Of a stretch of DNA of 58,666 bases, positions 154 to 33,398 are shown one piece after another. Origin of the DNA: Patellaria atrata CBS 101060 (lineage: Eukaryota); contig MU006089.1 of assembly GCA_010093705.1 (NCBI GenBank), forward strand, positions 880,011 through 938,676, given 5' to 3'. Within the stretch, counting starts at the first letter, position 1; every line of letters begins with the position of its first letter. A model generated the notes under the pieces. It saw only the letters and a program-made list of their open reading frames with translations. It was not told the origin of the DNA and made no database searches. A program made the position numbers and the translations under genes.

Positions 154-1434
154 ATGGCGACGGCAGCAACAATACAAGCAGTCCCGGTGTTTTCCATGCA
201 GGATCCATCCTTCCAACCTTCGGTCAAGTCTGTAGCTCCTCATAACGGTACCACTGCCGATACTTCAGTCGAATTCGACCCGGCAAAACATATATTATTC
301 CAGCCACCGTCTAAGATCATCAAGATGACAGACATTGGCTATGCAGAAGACACTGGAGTATCCCCTGTGGCAGTGTCACATCCGTTCCAACTCTTCTCAG
401 AGGACGCTATCGGGGAGATGAGAAAGGAGATATTTAAGAAAGAGGTTTTGGCCAATTGCAAGTACGAAAGCAATATTGCTGCTTGCCAGTTGAGGGGATA
501 CTCTCCAAAGTGCGTTTACCTACCTCTCAACATCTAAGGACAGATGACTGACACACATGAAACAGATATGCGAAATTCATCTACGATGCCTGGAAGCACC
601 CCGATACCCTTTCTATCATCTCGAAGATAGCTGGGGTCGATCTCGTACCGGAAATGGATTTTGAAATTGGGCATGTAAATCTCTCTATTAAGTCAAAGGA
701 ACAGACTGATCAAGAAATCGCGGCTATCTCGAACCAAAAGCGATTTTTTGCTGATGATGAAGGGATTGCTGGCTGTCCATGGGAGGATGATAAACCAATC
801 GTTGGTTGGCACACAGATAGCTATCCATTCGTTTGTGTCCTTATGCTTAGCGATTGTACGAACATGGTCGGTGGCGAGACAGCTCTAAGAACCCCTGACG
901 GTAACATCTTGAAAGTTCGCGGTCCTGGAATGGTAGACTTTCTCTTTTCTTCGCATGGTTTGAACTCTACTAACATTATGTTAGGGTTGCGCAGTTATTC
1001 TTCAAGGGCGTTACATTACACATCAAGCCCTCCGGGCCTTAGGAACCAAGGAGCGTATCACCATGGTCACTTCGTTCCGTCCCAAATCCCCGTTTCTTGC
1101 GGATGATTCGGTACTCCGCACAGTCAGACCAATTTCAGACCTCTCGGAGCTATACTATGATTTCGGGGAGTATCGACTTGAGATCATGGAAGCGCGAATC
1201 AACGCTAGGTTGAAAGTTATACGGGATCGTCGCCGAGCAGGCAAGAGGATCGATACGTCGGCGTTTAAGAAGTTCCTCCAAGAACAGATTGCTTTCCTTG
1301 CTCACACAAACAGCGAAATAGTTGAGGAGGATCAGGTTACTGTAGGTTACATTGAGGAGATGGACATCCCAGACGTTAAGGTTGAAGCTATGGAGGTCCC
1401 AAAGCAGGGTACTAAGAGGGCTCGTACAGATTGA
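154..1434 (+). CDS. Fungal 2OG-Fe(II) dioxygenase-like hypothetical protein (3 exons; introns ~510-565 and ~933-984)
   Basis: Spliced ORFs give GWHTDSYPFVCVLMLSDC...GGET...H.A......RITMVTSFRP, i.e. HxD...H...RxS-like double-stranded beta-helix motifs; the start codon is uncertain. Confidence 0.7.
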
Positions 1435-2942
1435 TCGGATAGCATGATTGCAACTCTAAGTAAGCTTTGAGGGGTGTTGATGATTCGATTATTGCTTTGG
1501 GTGTTCATTTGTCTCGACTACGGGTTCTAGTCTTCTGACTTGACGGTTTTTGCGGTTCCGATGACAAGGGTAGAGCTCTTTATTCCTTGATGAGACCGTT
1601 TTTTTTTTTGAAAAAAACATAATGAAGTCGATTACTAGGCTCTAAGTAGATGAAATCGATTGCTTTGGGTGTACTGATGAAGGTTCCAAGGTTCTGCTGC
1701 ATCGGGCGTGATTGCGAGATGTCGAGATACAGTACAGCCGGAAGCGAGTACGCCATCACCACGACAAGATAAGTCACATTCCCATGTTTTGAAAATAAAT
1801 AATGACAAGATTAGTTGAGTGATGAGCTTGTATATTCTCTTATATAGCGGCGAATGATTTAAGAACTGAGATAAATAGATAGAATAGATATAACTGGTTC
1901 AGGAGAGGAGATATATAAGGTAAGCAAACAAGGAGACACGATGGAATGCTGGTGTAAAAGATGCATGCTACAGTACCTGAGAAGGCGACGAGAGGACAAA
2001 CACCTAAAAATACACTCACTCCCATTGACGATGCCAAATTGTGTCTCTTTGCTGGGAAGATATCGACAACTGTTGTGTCCATATGCCAGTAGTTATCGGG
2101 GGTTACAGTTCTACGTAGGCACGGTAGGTAAGTATGTCGGAGAGTAAAAGCTTGAGGTTCTGTGGCTAGGGTCTCAATAAATAGTACCTAGGCTTTCGTC
2201 TTGGACGTTGGATACGAGCTAACAAACATTATTGGTACTGAGGTGAACCTGTACTGTATAAGTATGATGGGCTGTTATATTGTCGTCTTTCAAAATGTTG
2301 GATTGGTGAAGAGAAAACTGTACTCGGCTTGACGTTTTATACATATTCAGGCGGGATAAGTGAAGGGAGATGGAAGGAAAATATAAAAGGGTGTCAGATG
2401 GTAGAGATCCTTGAATGATGGAGAGGTTGTCTGCTGGGTCCCCGCAATGCTCTCCAATAAAACGAGCAGGTGGTGCAAGAAATTTTAGCGCTGCGGTCGT
2501 TCCTCGTCTTTTCCATCGTGTGGCCATGATTATTCCCTAAAATCCATGAAACGTGAGGCAGTCAATGTGAGTGGATGTCGTTTGTCATCCCACTGCATTT
2601 AGAGTTGTCGCCCTTGTTGCCCTTCCGGGTTGTTGCCCTTGTGTTGCCCGTCGTGCTTTCCCTCCACTCTCCTCCACTCCTACCGAACCTGCAACCTAAC
2701 CCTACCTTACCTCACCCGTCGTGCCTTACTGTACTGCAAATACTGTACGTAGCTTCTTACCTTACCTTAGGTTGCAGCTTCTTCACCACCTTGGAAAGGC
2801 AAAGGCACGCGCTGTCGACCTTTCTTGACGGGAGATTCTCTCCCAACAACCTCTTACTTCCGAACAGTCTTGAATGACTTTGTTCCCGGTGTAATGAGGA
2901 TTACCACATTTGTACATTTAATACGGCCTCTTGCCATTCAAC

Positions 2943-5900
2943 ATGTCAGCCATGGACACACGAGCTTCATCTGCCCCCGCCACGACTTCACGTAATGTCC
3001 GTCAAAAGCCCACAAGCACTTCAGCATCATCAAGTACAGTCATGCCCTCCAATGCCACCTCTCGACCACCTCAGGTGATTCGACCATCACCTTCGGCATC
3101 GTCATCGGCGCCGCGGAGTACGACGGGCTCTACCACCAGCACGCACAAACCTCCCACACAATCATCCATAGAGATCAGAAAAGCTCGTACCTCAAGCAAA
3201 GATAGTCTCACCGCAAAGATGCCCAAGAAGCAGGACGAGGTAGTCAAACCTGATAAGAACGAGGAGGTACTAGATCACCAATCGGTATTCAAATCCTCAC
3301 CCACGAACACCTAGATCTAATGAACATCCGTAGCTATTGAAAGTCTATAAGTCGAGCTTTGATAGCCTTCGCTCGTTGATTACCTGCAAAATCTGCGACC
3401 GACTCCTATACGAACCATATGTCATTTCGTGCGGACATGTTTATTGTTACAGCGTGCGTATCAGCATTGATTCGATAAAAAGATTTAACTAATTTCTTCA
3501 AGTGCCTTTGTCAATGGTTCGTCACCAACAAGAAGAAGAAGACTTGCCCGGACTGCCGTGCACATATCATAGATCCACCTGCTCCATCCTATTTGGTTCG
3601 TCATACCCTTTCCCGAATGGAAGAGATATTCTAACGTTCTACTTGCAGACGAGGGAAATTACGCAGAATTTGATCGCACGAGCTGAGCTTTTGCCTCCCG
3701 GGGAGTCAGCGGAGCAACATACAACATGGCATAAAGAAGAACAAGACCAGATCCAGCAGGATAAGAATAACACGGACAAGCGGACAGGTGGTTTGTTCAA
3801 AGGCGTCTTTAGAAACACCAGGAAACTTCGTGTGTTCGTAGACGAAGAAGACACGGTCGATAGGTGTCCTTACTGCATGTGGGAACTTGTGGATCGCGAA
3901 TGCTCACAATGTGGTCTTCAGGTTGACGAGAACGGTTCAGTCATTTTTCCTAACAGCTTTGGAGGCTTCAGTGACATGGATGAAACCTCGGAACACAATA
4001 TGTCTGGGGAAGATCACGATGCTGAATTGGATATGGAAGACGACGATGCTGAGCTTGGGTTTGAGGAAGATGGCATGGAAGAATGGGGAAACTACCATGA
4101 GGATGATCATCCATATGCTGTCCGCAGATGGCTTGCAAATGGTGCTCTTGGTGCCCCTCCCCACACTTACGCGAGTGCACCGAGACGACGCGCTGCACAT
4201 AGCGCGGCTGGTAGTCGAAGGCGGTCATACAGTGCGAGTATTATATCCGATATTTTCACAGAAGACGCGGAGATGGAGACTCTCGAAGAGGAAGATGACG
4301 AGGATTTGGAAGATGAGGATTCCTCTATGAATGATTTTATAGACGATGAAGTGGAGGAGCAGTCGCAAAGTACGAATTCTACGAGTGGTCAAACTCTTCA
4401 ACCATCTTTCAATGTTAACCAAAGACGAGCGCGGCGGGTCGTTGAATCGGATTCGTCCTCTGTCTCACATATACAAGACCTTGAGGAAGATGACGAGGAT
4501 GAGGGTCCGATACCAAATGGTAGACGTCGCCAGAATCCTGGTGCAACAACGGCTAGATTTGGGCACCGAGGAACTGTTCCACCTTCTGAGAGCACAGAAG
4601 CATCGATAGATCAAGAGTTGAGTGACGATGAGCAAGCTTTGCTGTACGAGAACGCTTGGGCACAGTTGGGGAATGATGGCCAGGACGATGAGATGGATGA
4701 CGGGGAAGGTGATGATAGTGATGGGGGAAGAACGACAATTGGGTGGGAGCCGACAGCGAACTCTAACGATACTTCCCGAATACCTGGTTCTCTAACGCCT
4801 GTCGCAGGTCGTCCTCCCGCCTCGAATCCCCATGCCCCTCGAATAGGTAGTTCTCGCTTCCTGGATGGTTCCCGTGGGCTACGCCGTCGAAGCTCTGTTC
4901 TGTCCGTATCGACAGTGAATTATGAAGATGGTGAGGCGGATGATGATGATTCCGAAGCCGAACAAGGGATTGACCACGATGGTGATATGAACATGAACGG
5001 TTTGCAAATCCGTGCTCGTCGTTCACGTATACGTTTGCGAAATGGTCAAACCCCAAACGTGGGACGCCCCGAATCCAGAATCCTCTCAGTTGGAGATGCT
5101 GTCGATGTAGACACCGATGATAATTCTGATACCTCTGCATACCCTTCTAGGCGTCGACAGCGAATGCACTCAAGGCAACCAGATTATGACCCTAGAATCA
5201 GTTGGATGTTCACTCAGCATCTTAATGATATGCGTGAGATCGGCCAGGTACCCGGTGGTATAAATGAGTACTTAGAGCAGCTTCGCGCAGTAACACCTGT
5301 ATCACGGCCTAGGACGGCTAATAGAAACCGGTTCACGTATTCCCCGGCACCGTTTTCACCTTTGTCTAACGGGTCCCTTCCCCCATTTTCGCCACCGGCA
5401 AATGCGCCAACACGACATAGAACGCCTTCCATTGATGGCTCTTCTGTTGGTGGACGTTTGACGGAAGCGTCGTCTCGCCAGTCACGCAGTAGTTCTACGT
5501 CTGTCCAGTCCAGCTCGACAATTTCCGGAGTTCCAGTCCAGAACACAAGTGTAGGTCAACAACGAGACTCCTCGACTGTTTTGGATAGCACCGCAACTGC
5601 TTCTCAGCTATCTAATTCCATCCAGGCTGCGTCTACTGGGACTAACTCACTCCCTATAGATGCTATGGGAGATATAATTGAACGTCCCATGTCTCGTGTT
5701 AGCTCCCGTCCGCCTTCTGCTGCTGGAAGACGTCCAGCTCCCCCGTTTGGGCCTGCCTATTCCGGCCTATCCATTAATCCTGGTCTAAATTTTGCTGCAC
5801 GCTCCTTCCAAGCAGGGACACGGAACCCATTTGCTTTCTACATCCGACCACGGCCTTCTACGCAGCAATTCAGGGAGCAATCATCCACCGCTACACTACG

Positions 5901-27000: not shown

Positions 27001-27261
27001 AAGGTTGACGAAAGCAAGGCCGACAGTAGGTGAAATACCGCGGGATTCACTAACGGCACAGATGATCTGCTGAGATTCGATACCAGCAATGGTGGAGATA
27101 CCTGTCCTTGGTCTACCTGTGCCTGGCCGGCCATTGCTTCTACGTTCTGTTCGCGTACGTGAAGTAGTGGTGGTATATTCATTGTAGGAGTACGATGGAT
27201 AAGACGTGCTCACAGAAGTGTAGGAAGTTGATACATCTGAACGCTTGTTCTTTAAAGGCAT
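24038..27261 (-). CDS. MSH4: Meiotic MutS homolog 4 (multi-exon)
   Basis: [49 protein letters not shown] (Walker A), [24 protein letters not shown]; lacks the mismatch-binding domain I. Confidence 0.93.
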
Positions 27262-28109
27262 GATTTTTGTTTAGCACTTTGGTTAACAATTAGCAAAGGA
27301 ATGATTTAATATGATAATCTAAGATCTCCACAAAAAATCTTGAAGATCCATGTGAGATATGACTTGGATGAGAAGTTCACTTTTGTTGATGAGATGGGAA
27401 AGAACAAGTCGCGAACGTGGAGTGGAGGTCGCGTTGGCAGGACGCATGAGCCATATCTTAACTCTTGGCATAAAATGGTCCAAGGCGAAGCGCCGGGGTA
27501 CCGTACGAAACTCAAGGTTCTTTTTAGTTCTTTGTTAAATACTTAGAATGCAATCAATTCATACTGTTATCTGAGGTCTCGATGAAAAATCTTCAAGATT
27601 CATGTGCGATATGACTCGGATGAAAGTTCAGTTTCTTTTCACGAGATGAGACACGAACGAAAGTCAGCCCAGGTCAATAATACTCAGTTGTGGCCAACAA
27701 TACGTATCGATAAGGTATTGGTATTCTCGGTATTTCATCGGTATTGTATCGAATATTGTAATACCTTAAAAATACTCTTGGCATTCAAGGCTTTTTGATA
27801 CTTTTTAGAATTTATCTAAAATATTCATACATTTTGAAGAATTTTATTGAGATGAAGATGCCTTCGTACGAAGCCATTGCATAGCTATGAGTAATATGTA
27901 CAGTTATTCTAATATGGAAGGCACGAGGGCGTGCCTGCCTTCCCACCTGCCTACCTACCCACCTGCTAGTTTACATAAATATCTCTTCTTTCTAAGCTTT
28001 CTCTTCTTCTCTTCTTCTCTTCTTTTCTCCTCCTTGACCTCTCATTTAGCAACTCGAAATATAAGTGCTCAGCTCAAATCTATCGTACGAAGGCTAATCA
28101 GACTACAGC

Positions 28110-28646
28110 ATGGCAGATATGCAAGTAGTTCTCTACAACCCAGCGATCGCGCTTGCCGCTCAGGCAAACCGCAACCCAGTGCTACTCGTAGCACAGCAGC
28201 AACTGGCTCCGTGATGCCATAGCCCACAGAGTAGAGCACTTCTGGCTGTCGGCGGGGGTGCTGATGTTGAGTTCGTACGGGGCTCCATCACGCCTCAGCA
28301 GATTGGATCTCATAGGCAGTCATATGTCAATAGGATCCTCATCCAATCTCGTGGAGGTGATTTTGATCCTTGTACGGCTTGTGGTACGAAAGGTTTTCGT
28401 CCCTTCCTTAGTTGTCGCCGCGCTGGGGGACACTTTGGCGGAGCATGTGCCAACTGTAAATGGCGTGACCATGCAGCGCGCTGTCCCGTACGAGCTGGTA
28501 GGCCAAATGAGCCTACTTATGGAGACAGGCTGCTTGGACCTGGTCCAGGGGATGACGGAGCTGACGGCAGTGCCCCTGGGAATGCTATCACGCTGGGAGA
28601 TGATGACCAAGGGGCTACTCCCCAAAATGCTAGAATCATTGTCTGA
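28110..28646 (+). pseudogene. DUF3716-like Cys-rich protein gene inside the hAT element (178 codons, one in-frame TGA at 28212)
   Basis: Not in the ORF track. The frame reads MADMQVVLYNP...LAP*CHSP...YVNRILIQSRGGDFDPCTACGTKGFRPFLSCRRAGGHFGGACANCKWRDHAARC..., and IQSRG..CxxC..PFxxC..GACANC is the pattern I recognise as DUF3716. Confidence 0.75.
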
Positions 28647-28782
28647 GCAAAGCTTCGTACGAAACTTTCTTTGGCGTTCTAGCGTTCTAGCTTTTAGGTG
28701 TTCTACTTTACATAGCTACACAGCTATTAATAGCACTTAGACATGATCTGTACCTTTACGTGGTGTCTAAGATTAGTAGCCA

Positions 28783-30250
28783 TTAGGCGAAACTAAATAG
28801 ATCGTACGAACCTTTTAGTAAAATGTTTTGTTTTGCCCAATGCTTAAGACATTTAGTATGTTCTAGCTCTCTTGAATTTAAGCGTGATCTTTCCCATGAT
28901 ACCGTACGACGAGCTGCTGAAAATACTCGTTCTGGTTCATCACTTATAGCTGGAATTGAGAGGCTCTCAACTGAAAGTATAGATGGCCGTGGAAACCGAG
29001 CTCTTTAAGTATCAGTTAACCACCATTTAATAGGTGAAGCGTCCCCAATATCGTACGGACCTTGGTTAATATAATCTTCAAACTCATCACCACTTAAGGG
29101 AGTCTTATTAAACCACTAAATTTGATCAAGAACACGTTCAAAATCAGTTATATTCTCAGATAGAGTCCTCTTTTCTTCGTACGACGCTGATAATGGTACT
29201 AAATAGGTTTTATTCCATTTTTCCAGTATAATTTAGTAAGCTTAATTATCTACTCAGCTTTCCCTCTTTCTTTCCTCTAACCTTCCTTAATAATCTTCTG
29301 TACGATATTAAGGAGTAAAGATTGTCGCAAGAATATAATAAGGTGAGGAAAGAAGTATAGAATAATACTTCTTAAAAAGGTGTAAAGCTTTACAAAGTTA
29401 AGGTTCAAAATCTTTCTTATAGGTATTGTCACGGTTTGGTACTTACACACACACGTCCCGTGATCACGTGGTCTTATCTCATCAGATAAGATCCCTTGGC
29501 GTAATGATCATATCAACGATCCTTCGTAGTTTGTAGATAATCAGTTCTAATATATTCGTTAATACTCAATATTGTTAGTTTATCTACTACGTTGACGTGC
29601 CCTTACAGGTATGTTCATACTTTCTTAAAAGAATATGAAAGCCAAGTATCGTACGAAGTATTATATTAAATGATAGAGAATGGGCTTAATTTACGTTACC
29701 TTATAAAAGGGGCGAAGAATTAAATGGATCGTACGAAGCTTTTTCCAATCTTTATATGAAAGATAATCCTCTTTAAGATCACTATATTATCTCTTAATAT
29801 ATAAATCGATTTCTTCTTCTTTACTTAGTGCAACATCTATCATAATATACTAGCTATTCCATCTTGTACGATTATCAAGTGGAATCATTCTCTCTACTCT
29901 TATAGTAAAGTCTTTTAAGTGATGTGTAGAGCTTCGAATATAAACCACAATATTATAAAGCTTTCCAAGTGACCCTACCGTACAAAAGGCTGACTATCTC
30001 TATCTTCTTAAGTCGGCTTGTCTTATCTTATAATCCTCTATTGATAGTTTATATGTAAGACTACTTAGCCCTTAAGATTTAATTTATTCTTCAGCGTCGT
30101 ACGACTCAATTAAGTTCCAGGGAACGCAAAATCATGGAGAAGCAGCTAAAGTTAAGAATGACATTAACAAAGCTCTTTTGTATAGAGAAGGGGAAAGAAG
30201 TACTCTTCCAGTACCTACATAATACTTAGATCTCAACAGCTAAATGGCTT
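28783..30250 (-). pseudogene. hAT transposase remnant with many stops
   Basis: Minus-strand motifs LGKLYNIVVYIRSS...PLDNRTRWNS*Y (~29850-29970) and the dimerisation domain PIKWW...RFP...LSIPAISDEPERVFSAARRTVSWERSRL...CLKHW (28825-29040). TAA/TAG stops fall where CAA/TGG are expected, which is RIP-like. The 5' boundary is approximate. Confidence 0.88.
29427..29607. mobile_element. Solo LTR (181 bp) nested in the hAT transposase
   Basis: Starts TGTCACGG, ends CCTTACA, flanked by a perfect 5-bp TSD GGTAT (29422-29426 and 29608-29612). Confidence 0.85.
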
Positions 30251-30360
30251 CTACATACAAGAGAAATAAATGAAGAAGAACAAGAAACGTATTAAAAATG
30301 ATAGCATACAGGGGAAAAACTGGATTGAAATATAATGCAGGGAATTGAGGAGCAAAGGAT

Positions 30361-30868
30361 TGTTACAACGGGAGTCTATACTTATCGAGACAGAACTAGA
30401 TAAGTCTAGAACGCGCCTGGCTTCTCACTTAACGTGGTCAACCACAAAGGTAGGTTTGGCAAAGTGATAGGATACGTATAACAAAGGCACTTCAAGTTGT
30501 CGACACAACTTGCTGACTCCTTGACTTCGGGTAATGCTCACNNNNNNNNNNNNNNNNNNNNNNNNNNNNNNNNNNNNNNNNNNNNNNNNNNNNNNNNNNN
30601 NNNNNNNNNNNNNNNNNNNNNNNNNNNNNNNNNNNNNNNNNAAGAATAACTACGAAGAATCTAAATACATGAGGGAAAGACCGTCCTTAAATATTCCTAT
30701 CCTCCATAGTCAATTTGGTGGTGCTCCCACTGCTCCTGTGCTCCCACCTAGGGATCACTGGGAGCATGGGATCACGTCACGTGACCTCCGTGCTCGTTGT
30801 TCCGTTCCGACGTCCTCGTGCTACCATTCCGCTGGTGATGCACTCTCTGTCGTTCTGTGGCCGTAACA
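30361..30868. mobile_element. LTR retrotransposon insertion (solo LTR or collapsed full element) spanning an assembly gap
   Basis: TGTTAC...GTAACA inverted termini, 5-bp TSD AGGAT (30356-30360 and 30869-30873), N gap at 30542-30641. Confidence 0.85.
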
Positions 30869-31847
30869 AGGATATAGTGGAGTTGGTTCACTTTTTCTAA
30901 AAGCTTGACTTGGACTGTAAAGTTTGGACAACTGGAGAGTTTCACTCCTCAGACACTCTCACTAGGCATATTATTGCCCTAGGATAGGGATTTATGTGAA
31001 TAGAAGAGTAGCGCCATAGCCCTAGAGGCTGCATGCGCAGTATTGTAGATAATGCAATGCAATGGATTTAAAAAAAAAATCGATATCGATCTAATACAAT
31101 ACTAATCAGTATTCAATACTATTTAATACCGGAATATTATTGGCTATACTGGCCAGGTCGCGTGTCATGACGCACGGGTCATATTCTCAATCTTGGTACA
31201 AGGACTATTGAACACTTTTTCTTTGAAGAAACTCAAGAATTTTTTTAGCCCTTTGCCTACCGGTTAGCAAAGGCGTGTTGCAGCGTAATTATCTAAGATC
31301 TCAGCAAAAAGTTTCAAAGATCCATGTGCAATATGAAATTTGGAAGGGAAGTTCAGTTTCTCGTCTGGACGTGGTAAGAGGGGTAGATCAAGTCGCGTTC
31401 ACGCACGAGCCATAACCCAAACCTTGGCATATAAATGTCTACCCAAAAGCATCAACACATACTGTAAACGCTTCTTAAAAACTCAAGGAATTTTTAGTCA
31501 TTTGCTTAACGGTTAGTCTAGGAGTAATTTAACACAGATATCTGAGATCTCCGCAAAAAATGTCGACGATCCATATGCGATATAACTTTCGAAGAAAAAT
31601 TCAGTTTCCCTTGATCAGAACGGAAACCCGAGTGAAGTCGTCACCTCAGTCGTCAGTAAAGTCATCACGCCTTTGGGATGCACGTACCACCCACGCGAGT
31701 CATCCGAAATCTTGGCACAAAAAAAGTTCCAAAGACAACACATCACCAGCTGAATATCCACTCACATCTCAACACCTCAACAACCCCTTGACCAAATCGG
31801 TCACCAACAACACCACAACTTGAAAACACCTAGATACTCCCGTCACC

Positions 31848-33398
31848 ATGGCCACACAATACCCACCGCCCTCGAAGCGCCAAAAAACCGCCGCGGCCGC
31901 GCTCGCCAGCAAGCAACAAGAGATAGACCAGATCCCCACCGACCTAGGTAACGTACGCATCCAATTCATAGACCGCGCGACCAACGCGCCCACCGGTCCC
32001 CCCGTTTCCGTCCCCGTCGCCCAATCCACTGTCAAGAACCTCGAGCTCCTTCTCAACTCCCTCCAAGGGCACGACGAAGCCCACGACCGAATCCCCTTCC
32101 GCTTCTTCCACGAGCGAGGCGAAGGCGACGGCGACGCGCTGGCCGATGGCACGGATGTGTACCATGCACTGCTGAAGGAGGGGAAGGCGGGGACGGAGGA
32201 GACGATCACGCTGCATTATGCCCCGCAGGCTGTGTTTAGGGTGAAGGCGGTGAGTAGGTGCTCGGCGGCGATATCGGGGCACGGGGAGCCGATTTTGTGC
32301 GTGCAGTTTTCGCCCACGAGCTCGTCGAGGATGGCGAGCGGGAGTGGGGACAACACGGCAAGGATATGGGACTGCGATACCGGGACGCCGCTGCAGACGC
32401 TGAAGGGGCATACGAGCTGGGTGCTTGCGGTGAGCTGGTCGCCGGACGCGAGTATGATCGCGACGGGGAGTATGGATAATACGGTGAGGTTGTGGGATCC
32501 GGTTACGGGAAAGGCTCTGGGAAGTCCGCTGAAGGGGCATTCGAAGTGGATTACGAGTCTGAGTTGGGAGCCGTATCATATACAAGAGAAAGGGAGACCG
32601 AGGGTTGCTTCGAGTAGCAAGGATGCTACAGTGAGGATATGGGATGCGGTTAATCGGAGAGCGGATATATCACTGAGCGGACACAAAGGCTCGGTGACAT
32701 GCGTGAAGTGGGGAGGTGTGGGCTTCATATACACGGCTTCATATGATAAGACGGTAAAGGTGTGGAATGCCTCAAATGGCACGCTTGCACATACCCTCGC
32801 GTCTCATGCTCATCGGGTCAACCATCTCGCGCTCTCAACAGACTTTGTCTTAAGAACAGCGTACCATGATCATACGGGAATGGTCCCCGATACGGATGAA
32901 GGTAAATTATCTAAGGCAAAAGAAAGGTTCCGCAAGACGGCTATGATCAATAAAAAGGTCGTTGAGCGGCTGGTAACCGCGAGCGATGACTTCACAATAT
33001 ACCTCTGGGAACCTTCCAACAGCACTAAGCCGGTGGCACGATTAATTGGTCATCAAAAGCAGGTCAATCACGTCACTTTCTCTCCAGATGGTCTCTATAT
33101 CGCCTCAACAGGTTTCGATAACCATGTCAAACTTTGGAATGCCCGAGATGGCAATTTCATCTATACTCTAAGAGGACACGTAGGACCAGTATACCAATGC
33201 TGTTTTTCTGCAGACTCAAGACTACTAGTAACAGCAAGCAAGGATACAACACTCAAAGCATGGGATGTCAGAACAGGTAAACTGAGTGTTGACTTACCAG
33301 GGCATGCTGATGAGGTGTATGCCGTTGACTGGAGTCCAGATGGTGAAAGAGTAAGCAGTGCAGGAAAAGACAAGCAAGTCAGGATCTGGAGATATTGA
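31848..33398 (+). CDS. RSA4: Ribosome assembly WD40 protein Rsa4/Notchless (intronless)
   Basis: NLE domain, then YAPQAVFRVKAVSRCS...GH, eight WD repeats, HLALSTDFVLRT, ASDDFTIYLW, DLPGHADEVYAVDWSPDG. Confidence 0.96.
   Translation: MATQYPPPSKRQKTAAAALASKQQEIDQIPTDLGNVRIQFIDRATNAPTGPPVSVPVAQSTVKNLELLLNSLQGHDEAHDRIPFRFFHERGEGDGDALADGTDVYHALLKEGKAGTEETITLHYAPQAVFRVKAVSRCSAAISGHGEPILCVQFSPTSSSRMASGSGDNTARIWDCDTGTPLQTLKGHTSWVLAVSWSPDASMIATGSMDNTVRLWDPVTGKALGSPLKGHSKWITSLSWEPYHIQEKGRPRVASSSKDATVRIWDAVNRRADISLSGHKGSVTCVKWGGVGFIYTASYDKTVKVWNASNGTLAHTLASHAHRVNHLALSTDFVLRTAYHDHTGMVPDTDEGKLSKAKERFRKTAMINKKVVERLVTASDDFTIYLWEPSNSTKPVARLIGHQKQVNHVTFSPDGLYIASTGFDNHVKLWNARDGNFIYTLRGHVGPVYQCCFSADSRLLVTASKDTTLKAWDVRTGKLSVDLPGHADEVYAVDWSPDGERVSSAGKDKQVRIWRY

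Follow-up and report, generated by a model that had tools for sequence, protein, structure and literature searches.

A dispersed CGTACG array in a hAT transposon of Patellaria atrata and its candidate reader, a DUF3716 cargo protein

How fungal transposons stay active despite repeat-induced point mutation (RIP) and DNA methylation is a largely open question. The window (the whole stretch analysed, 58,666 nucleotides of contig MU006089.1 of Patellaria atrata CBS 101060, positions 880,011 to 938,676) includes a decayed hAT DNA transposon that carries a gene for a small DUF3716 protein beside its transposase and in which the palindrome CGTACG recurs throughout. Why is this word repeated here, and which protein, if any, reads it? 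The array is real, selected and undescribed in the literature searched, while the mechanism considered below, in which the DUF3716 protein is the reader, is plausible but unproven. The genome of the window (28.7 Mb) is termed G000, and L-numbers denote loci fetched in the analysis.

The array and the transposon that carries it

An earlier note on this DNA had listed 12 perfect copies of CGTACG, and all 12 are recovered, with starts at 27865, 28084, 28274, 28487, 28656, 28803, 28903, 29052, 29178, 29650, 29730 and 30098. Its one-transition variants at 28371, 29865 and 29979 are likewise found, whereas the fourth begins at 29299 rather than 29300; a transversion variant, GGTACG, occurs at 28383. 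The proposal that fewer than one site would be expected agrees with a first-order Markov model, which predicts 0.24 in 27750-30542, where CGTACG is the top 6-mer and TCGTACGA the top 8-mer. The latter accounts for 8 of the 12 window sites, and YCGTACGR fits all 12. Outside the element, the window has 7 CGTACG sites in 55,199 bases. Genome-wide, TCGTACGA is not enriched (422 occurrences in 28.7 Mb vs 427 for a control), and the 8 seen in 2.24 kb of the element compare with 0.03 expected at the genome rate. The gaps in the left part of the array measure 100-219 bp, close to the 100-220 bp first given. As also noted earlier, the sites enter both coding regions (2 in the DUF3716 frame and 7 in the transposase remnant, with 3 non-coding) and are missing from both nested long terminal repeats (LTRs); the solo LTR and the poly(A)-tailed insert with its own nested LTR have 0 perfect and 0 one-transition copies. 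The features of the copy are:

27685..31151 (unstranded), hAT DNA transposon copy of the ~3.4-kb type, decayed and internally deleted, with 83% identity to the intact copy L031:555-4004
27865..30103 (unstranded), CGTACG array by site counts, 12 perfect sites plus mutated sites at 28371, 28383, 29299, 29865 and 29979
28110..28646 (+), DUF3716 cargo gene with a six-cysteine domain and an acidic tail ending in a hydrophobic motif; in-frame stop at 28212-28214 (Pfam PF12511, E=7.6e-12)
28786..30115 (-), hAT transposase remnant interrupted by stops and frameshifts, covering ~residues 317-699 of 700 and running convergently to the DUF3716 gene (PF05699, E=4.8e-08)
27685..27697 (+), left terminal inverted repeat (TIR) CAGTTGTGGCCAA, family form CAGTGTGGCCAA, by comparison with other copies
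31140..31151 (-), right TIR TTGGCTATACTG, family form TTGGCCACACTG, by comparison with other copies
27668..27675 (+), probable left target-site duplication (TSD) CCCAGGTC, a 7/8 match to GCCAGGTC at 31152-31159, with 9 extra bases (27676-27684) before the TIR
29427..29607 (unstranded), nested solo LTR, TG...CA by its sequence ends, with 5-bp duplication GGTAT and no motif
30116..31079 (+), poly(A)-tailed repeat fragment at the site of a ~1.06-kb deletion, without the motif; recognised from other copies in G000
30361..30868 (unstranded), LTR element inside the poly(A)-tailed insert, TG...CA by its sequence ends, with 5-bp duplication AGGAT, an internal N gap and no motif

The element is a hAT DNA transposon, as the earlier note had read it together with its DUF3716 gene. 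The family has at least 13 copies in G000. The terminal repeats CAGTGTGGCCAA ... TTGGCCACACTG are present in 11 copies and degenerate in the window copy, a perfect abutting 8-bp TSD is found in 10 of the 11 other copies having both ends, and PF05699 (the hAT C-terminal dimerisation domain) is detected in what the window copy retains of the transposase as well as in the 700-aa L031 frame. In that intact copy the transposase frame converges with a 174-aa DUF3716 frame. All 13 PF12511 matches in G000 lie within this hAT family, with the DUF3716 frame inside the TIRs. The window copy is missing ~1.06 kb of the transposase 5' half, where the intact copy has 7 more sites; the 12 window sites are the remnant of a 21-site array in a 3.4-kb transposon.

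The intact array of L031 extends from position 183 to 3300 of 3450 bp, ending ~180 and ~155 bp short of the element ends, and 17 of its 21 sites are in coding frames. Within the transposase frame, CGTACG fills 14 of the 18 places that are synonymously possible, in codon phases 6/4/4; codon shuffles of the frame give a mean of 0.8 sites and a maximum of 4 (2000 shuffles), and each of 17 control palindromes fills 0-1 of its possible places. The next commonest NN-TA-NN hexamer of L031 occurs 5 times vs 21 for CGTACG, and flanking information is small beyond one base on each side. Frames of other elements are recoded in the same way, with 45 sites vs 6.5 expected in a Copia frame, 27 vs 3.5 and 28 vs 3.8 in Gypsy frames, 28 vs 4.9 in a helicase frame and a similar excess in a Crypton-like frame. 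The gaps of L031 average 156 bp with a coefficient of variation of 0.43 (vs 0.94 for random placement), spacing is significantly more even than random in 7 of 14 tested loci, and pooled gaps peak at 120-150 bp; no helical phasing of 10-11 bp is seen in the pooled gaps. The array is under selection at the DNA level, approximately every 100-170 bp through the whole element, including its coding sequence. Coding sequence can thus be recoded in all three phases into a regular lattice resembling binding sites.

Comparison between copies gives the same picture of constraint. Conservation in other copies had been named as a check on the original proposal, and the motif bases are 96-97% identical between two subfamilies of G000 vs 86-88% elsewhere. 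In the window copy, motif CpGs are retained at 25/28 vs 41/70 for other CpGs (p=0.004). Among 8 hAT transposase genes with 39-46% protein identity to L031, 3 sites are common to 8/8, 2 to 7/8 and 12 are private; one of the sites common to 7/8 lies under differing residues (SYD or AYE).

The window copy itself is a dead relic, with the DUF3716 stop, many transposase stops, the ~1.06-kb deletion, the solo LTR and the poly(A)-tailed insert that itself harbours an LTR. CpA is the preferred context of its private C>T changes (40/65), as would be expected of RIP. The nine extra bases at 27676-27684, AATAATACT, equal bases 11-19 of the family right end read inward, as if copied in during repair. The poly(A)-tailed repeat of 30116-31079 recurs in the L033:1059-1500 region (G000:C17), which is another copy of this hAT family; there it sits at the start of the DUF3716 gene, and in the window copy in the transposase.

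Several observations concern the surroundings of the insertion. Four imperfect ~97-bp repeats are found at 27266-27614 and 31240-31585, two per side of the transposon and ~250 bp apart. They occupy DNA that lies upstream of two genes at once, one of the MutS family on the minus strand and a WD40 gene at 31854-33398 that we take to be Rsa4/Notchless-like; the hAT has inserted mid-repeat. Left of the element, CGTACG occurs at 27154-27159 inside the MutS-family gene and at 27502-27507 upstream of it, in both cases probably by chance.

The array and the DUF3716 gene across element kinds

A metagenome alignment scan for DUF3716 relatives yielded 341, of which the best 80 loci were kept. The array or its decay products are present in 76 of these 80 loci, all of one DUF3716 clade. 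A significant CGTACG excess is found in 42, and CpG-deaminated forms of the array in 19, of which 17 are one decayed Gypsy family. The remaining 19 have neither; in 15 of them, all decayed copies, the positions where an intact relative has the motif hold transition products almost exclusively. The clade is joined to six element kinds by Pfam and tblastn:

hAT, metagenome loci
Gypsy, L089, L129 and L091
Copia, L101 and L117
Clr5 plus integrase, L099 and L141, presumably IS3EU-like
NDC10_II, L126, which we assume to be Crypton-like
OrsD with or without a RecQ-type helicase, L102, L097 and L113

The lattice co-occurs tightly with this single DUF3716 clade across all six kinds. Its densest forms are in intact long frames, e.g., 57 sites in 6.5 kb of a Copia element with a 1677-aa frame, and the array comes to an abrupt end within long loci (L076, L078 and L126, for instance). 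In an unrooted tree of 81 DUF3716 rows, the hAT label changes 14 times, 9 of them forced by well-supported branches, and the Gypsy label changes 5 times with 3 forced; the tree is consistent with repeated transfer between element kinds, with no direction claimed. Of the DUF3716 proteins that have a named source, the nearest belong to the ascomycete Patellaria atrata, and most others are metagenomic.

Elements of the same genome that have no DUF3716 gene serve as controls. A second, DUF3716-free hAT family of G000 has 0, 0, 0, 1 and 0 CGTACG sites at 5 loci. At 30 reverse-transcriptase loci (of 78 matches in G000), many of them full of stops, 4 sites are found in 92 kb vs 21.7 expected. Pairs of YCGTACGR sites 90-120 bp apart number 47 in G000; the hAT family accounts for 40 of them and a tagged pogo family described below for 2, with 5 elsewhere (2 for the control). 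The earlier note had asked whether hATs with DUF3716 each carry a family-specific dispersed motif and whether hATs lacking the gene do not. The DUF3716-free family and the 30 reverse-transcriptase loci, all lacking the array, agree with the second half; family specificity fails, as one word is used across DNA transposons and retrotransposons. The note had also left the reader as either the DUF3716 protein or the transposase. Co-occurrence of the array with DUF3716 across unrelated elements points to the former rather than the latter.

Other loci of the scan are of interest in their own right. The pogo element at L075 was considered as a DUF3716 carrier and rejected, since its TIRs (905-2989) exclude the gene and it has 1 site; it is kept as a control. 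A large Gypsy family, now decayed, comprises L111, L115, L118, L122 and related loci; its DUF3716 gene is antisense, its CpG observed/expected ratio is 0.0-0.3, and the array survives there solely as TGTACA/CATACA forms. Two predicted proteins, P0114 and P0164, join a DUF3716-like region to DDE_1 transposase or NDC10_II/GCR1_C domains and could be true fusions or joined gene models. At L230:2308-2888 (G000:C1, near 1,876,000), four CGTACG sites lie in an apparently internally repetitive host stretch with no DUF3716 nearby.

The candidate reader and the alternatives

The DUF3716 relatives form a family of 1066 clusters at 50% identity, and none were found in viral contigs, prokaryote genomes or phages. 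Six cysteines are near-invariant, in a pattern matched by 147 of 175 relatives (typically C-x2-C-x9,17-C-x10-C-x2-C-x8-C). The AlphaFold model has a mean predicted local distance difference test score of 74, with a core of ~90, a confident region of approximately residues 11-120 and a disordered tail. An Atlas fold search returned DUF3716 clusters and one low-scoring lead at 0.81. Many of the acidic tails finish with N/D-P/A-I-x-L, and the motif [NDT][PA][IVF]x[LIV] occurs in 70 of 153 tails vs 2.5 when shuffled, the pattern having been chosen after the alignment was viewed. A SUMO-interacting motif is described as an hXhh or hhXh core with acidic flanks (PMC8616421). The host SUMO gene is present, and the link of SUMO to DUF3716 is a lead. 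A search for the triple-site pattern in viral contigs gave 2 loci, both CRISPR-like repeat arrays and irrelevant.

The CGTACG sites are proposed to form a lattice of docking sites for a protein, most likely the small, six-cysteine, putatively zinc-binding DUF3716 protein, which several unrelated fungal transposon types would have acquired along with the lattice. With YCG-TA-CGR as its palindromic site, the protein would act in trans and cover any element that bears the tag. The weakest step comes next: through its acidic tail, which has a conserved hydrophobic motif at the C-terminus, it would attract a chromatin factor or keep one away, and the tagged element would thereby be kept transcribed and out of methylation or heterochromatin. 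Three cytosine methyltransferase genes in G000, together with the CpA-biased C>T changes of the window copy, suggest that there is silencing to escape. The word is identical in all families; thus, one working copy of the gene could serve every tagged element. The co-occurrence makes it rather probable that the DUF3716 protein binds the palindrome. There is about an even chance that, acting in trans, it recognises YCGTACGR and maintains the activity of tagged elements or holds them out of silencing, with free-riders allowed. A broader scheme is more tentative, and on balance it is doubted: both classes of mobile element in fungi may share one portable tag-and-reader system, in which the DUF3716 gene moves from one superfamily to another, every element that receives it becomes recoded with YCGTACGR every 100-170 bp, the protein is a public good shielding all tagged elements, and gene-less or gene-broken families are cheaters.

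Two groups of elements in G000 speak against a DUF3716 reader and against a strict tie of the motif to an intact gene in cis. A tagged pogo family (L207:824-2626; G000:C6:48225-50027) is without a DUF3716 gene by profile search. It is 1803 bp long, with long inverted ends and one transposase frame, and is represented by at least 4 copies, including deleted ones on C5, C8 and C19. Its array has 10 perfect and 9 one-transition sites with a mean gap of 88 bp, and 9 perfect sites are in the frame vs 0.65 expected. Its relatives at ~70% identity have 3-5 perfect sites and other DDE_1 loci 0-4 (20 DDE_1 loci compared, of 66 matches in G000). An element can therefore gain or keep the tag with no DUF3716 gene of its own, which a host reader explains equally easily. 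The 8 youngest hAT copies (L035-L042) have a frameshifted DUF3716 gene, by a one-base deletion near residue 60-65 that is also present in the run contigs. They are identical over 1.3 kb at separate genomic places, the transposase part is N in all 8, and their identity may be partly an assembly effect. Service in trans would explain both the gene-less pogo and the frameshifted young hAT subfamily as free-riders, and intact DUF3716 frames are present in L031 and L032.

Further points count on the same side. The 80 metagenome loci were the best among 341, all belong to one DUF3716 clade and fall under 43 record prefixes, with many near-copies; four of them (L095, L098, L123 and L135) have no clear array, and 7 of the 14 loci tested for spacing are not significantly even and contain large gaps. 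The gene of the non-hAT carriers is placed by adjacency and array continuity, element ends being mapped for the hAT only, and the pogo of L075, outside the tagged stretch, illustrates that adjacency can mislead. The DUF3716 fold matches no solved structure in Foldseek-PDB, in VIA-wide or in a profile search against chains of known structure. Enrichment of the canonical SUMO-interacting core is only marginal, with 62 of 153 tails vs a shuffled mean of 45 and maximum of 62. Nor is the motif protected from mutation in dead copies: when 13 such hAT copies from metagenomes are aligned with relatives that are intact, motif CpGs change at a rate of 0.50 (422/852) vs 0.31 for other CpGs, and at the same rate as CpGs of the same four-base context (0.49 vs 0.46; 0.61 vs 0.65). 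Thus, the word is a mutational source, not a sink, that decays quickly once selection ends, and this rapid decay indicates that it provides no lasting shield against mutation. As a separate observation, the commonest word of L095:1-2037 is TCG-TC/GA-CGA and not TCG-TA-CGA; it occurs 4 times in a YCG..CGR context adjoining an unidentified frame and is perhaps a variant motif, making L095 a candidate for changed specificity.

Two alternatives carry very little weight. The array may be a by-product, i.e., an end state of RIP or methylation, of codon bias or of amino-acid constraint. The word contains no CpA or TpG and would be spared by CpA-directed RIP, and the CpA bias of the window copy's private changes fits such a process; however, the densest arrays are in intact long frames, all three codon phases are used, motif CpGs are mutable in the dead relatives, and the RIP-decayed retroelements of G000, in which the earlier note asked if the word might be equally common, are depleted of it. 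A by-product is hardly credible on this evidence. Scarcely better placed is the view that the sites are subterminal-type repeats bound by the hAT transposase. Transposases of hAT elements bind short repeated words close to element ends, and some of the sites are deeply conserved among hATs. Yet the array runs through the interior and stops short of both ends, the second hAT family of G000 lacks it, and Gypsy, Copia, Crypton-like and pogo elements with unrelated enzymes use the same word; the array, confined neither to ends nor to a family, does not belong to the class of hAT subterminal transposase repeats, and this origin is very unlikely.

The other two alternatives change the identity of the reader or its purpose. 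The lattice may be read by a protein of the host, for example an activator of the sterol or hypoxia type or a protein that opens chromatin, with many transposons converging on its site and DUF3716 as a frequent passenger, cofactor or competitor. A single unchanging word across families, the tagged gene-less pogo and the young copies with a broken gene would all fit. In Pseudocercospora fijiensis, resistant isolates have extra copies of a 19-bp element in the cyp51 promoter, and this element includes TCGTACGA (PMC6637983); a host protein may read a similar word. Host arrays are, however, rare (the 5 of 47 site pairs outside the hAT family and the tagged pogo), TCGTACGA lacks genome-wide enrichment, most other elements in the same host are without an array, and there is little flank information beyond one base. 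Only 15 of 608 sites are ATCGTACGAT, the word that a sterol regulator may prefer, although no paper on this preference was found. A host reader also leaves the tagging of 76 of 80 gene carriers unexplained; it is considered unlikely. Slightly less likely again is that DUF3716 reads the word for self-restraint or timing, coating and repressing its element or limiting activity to one stage. The same co-occurrence would follow, sites throughout coding DNA suit a repressive coat, the tail motif could recruit SUMO-linked repressors, the latest-amplified subfamily has a broken gene, as loss of a brake predicts, and a host DUF3716 gene is reported to be required in sexual development (PMC10776026). 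Nevertheless, a gene-less family gains nothing obvious from 19 repressor sites, and with intact genes in L031 and L032 a trans-acting brake would still hit the young copies.

The preferred reading, i.e., a DUF3716 protein that acts in trans to keep tagged elements active, offers a candidate reader of 174 aa and an exact candidate site and is, thus, testable by one binding assay and one knockout. The tagged family without the gene lends itself to testing whether the protein acts in trans and whether some transposons cheat. If true, the reading would provide a function for DUF3716 and a possible explanation of the REP9-1 phenotype in Zymoseptoria. The broader scheme, if true, would amount to an anti-silencing code common to different families of fungal elements and to a small chromatin tool that could be programmed.

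Relation to known systems

No description of the array or of its pairing with DUF3716 was found among the open-licence papers listed (Repbase and subscription journals lie beyond this scope), and in the literature searched no fungal protein was found described that counters silencing sequence-specifically through a DNA tag of its own. Of classical DNA-binding proteins, the Zn2Cys6 factors (PF00172; C-x2-C-x6-C-x5,12-C-x2-C-x6,8-C) resemble DUF3716 in having six cysteines in a C-x2-C ... C-x2-C-x8-C layout and a target of two CGR half-sites 2 bp apart. DUF3716 differs in its first loop, which has 9-17 residues instead of 6, and has no structural match; in Pfam at E<0.5 no Zn_clus match to the DUF3716 protein is obtained, DUF3716 alone being above the cut-off. 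It is not placed in the Zn2Cys6 family.

The only experimental hint of DNA binding in the DUF3716 family comes from a host protein. PSC58 of Fusarium graminearum is annotated as a DUF3716 protein and reported to be orthologous to Neurospora crassa NCU05718 (PMC10776026), which directly binds double-stranded TTAGGG in vitro in a sequence-specific manner (PMC4650311). These are host genes, assigned to the same domain family by the annotation in PMC10776026; and the target of NCU05718 is TTAGGG, not CGTACG, with its binding domain unmapped in the account of PMC4650311, which weighs against the DUF3716 reader.

Parts of the system have precedents. DUF3716 is already known as cargo of the REP9 DNA transposon (IS3EU type) of Zymoseptoria tritici, which carries the DUF3716 genes REP9-1 and REP9-2 (Wang et al. 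2021, PMC8232023). Of the two, REP9-1 is expressed and reduces the formation of pycnidia. Those authors call the function of the cargo genes unknown, and no motif array is mentioned in the portion of PMC8232023 covered. Styx (PMC10853768) is probably REP9, judging from size and gene number, and is annotated with other domains. Transfer of cargo among superfamilies is likewise known for the TET/JBP dioxygenases (Kojima 2025, PMC12730594), a gene passed among many fungal transposon superfamilies and proposed to counter methylation silencing. By contrast, that cargo is an enzyme, is described from DNA transposons only and is found in other fungal lineages; no element-wide DNA tag for it appears in the covered portion of PMC12730594.

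Among the closest parallels are the VANC proteins and motifs of Arabidopsis VANDAL transposons, which are Mutator-like (Hosaka et al. 2017, PMC5735166). In both cases the transposase is accompanied by an accessory gene, and a short word recurs many times in the element. The VANC motifs are specific to their family and not palindromic, lie in non-coding DNA and grow as tandem repeats, whereas the CGTACG array is one palindrome in class I and class II elements, dispersed, evenly spaced and substituted into coding DNA. The proteins are unrelated, VANC being of the DUF1985/DUF287 type in a Mutator-like element and the fungal protein a DUF3716 in a hAT. Binding and demethylation are demonstrated for VANC (PMC5735166), whereas the fungal system is known here from sequence. 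At best, DUF3716 and CGTACG would work like VANC without being a member of that system, from which they depart in domain, host element, family specificity and non-coding tandem placement. The likeness extends to the proposed free-riders, as the unrelated AT9TSD1 element bears the VANC6 motif and is derepressed in trans (PMC5735166).

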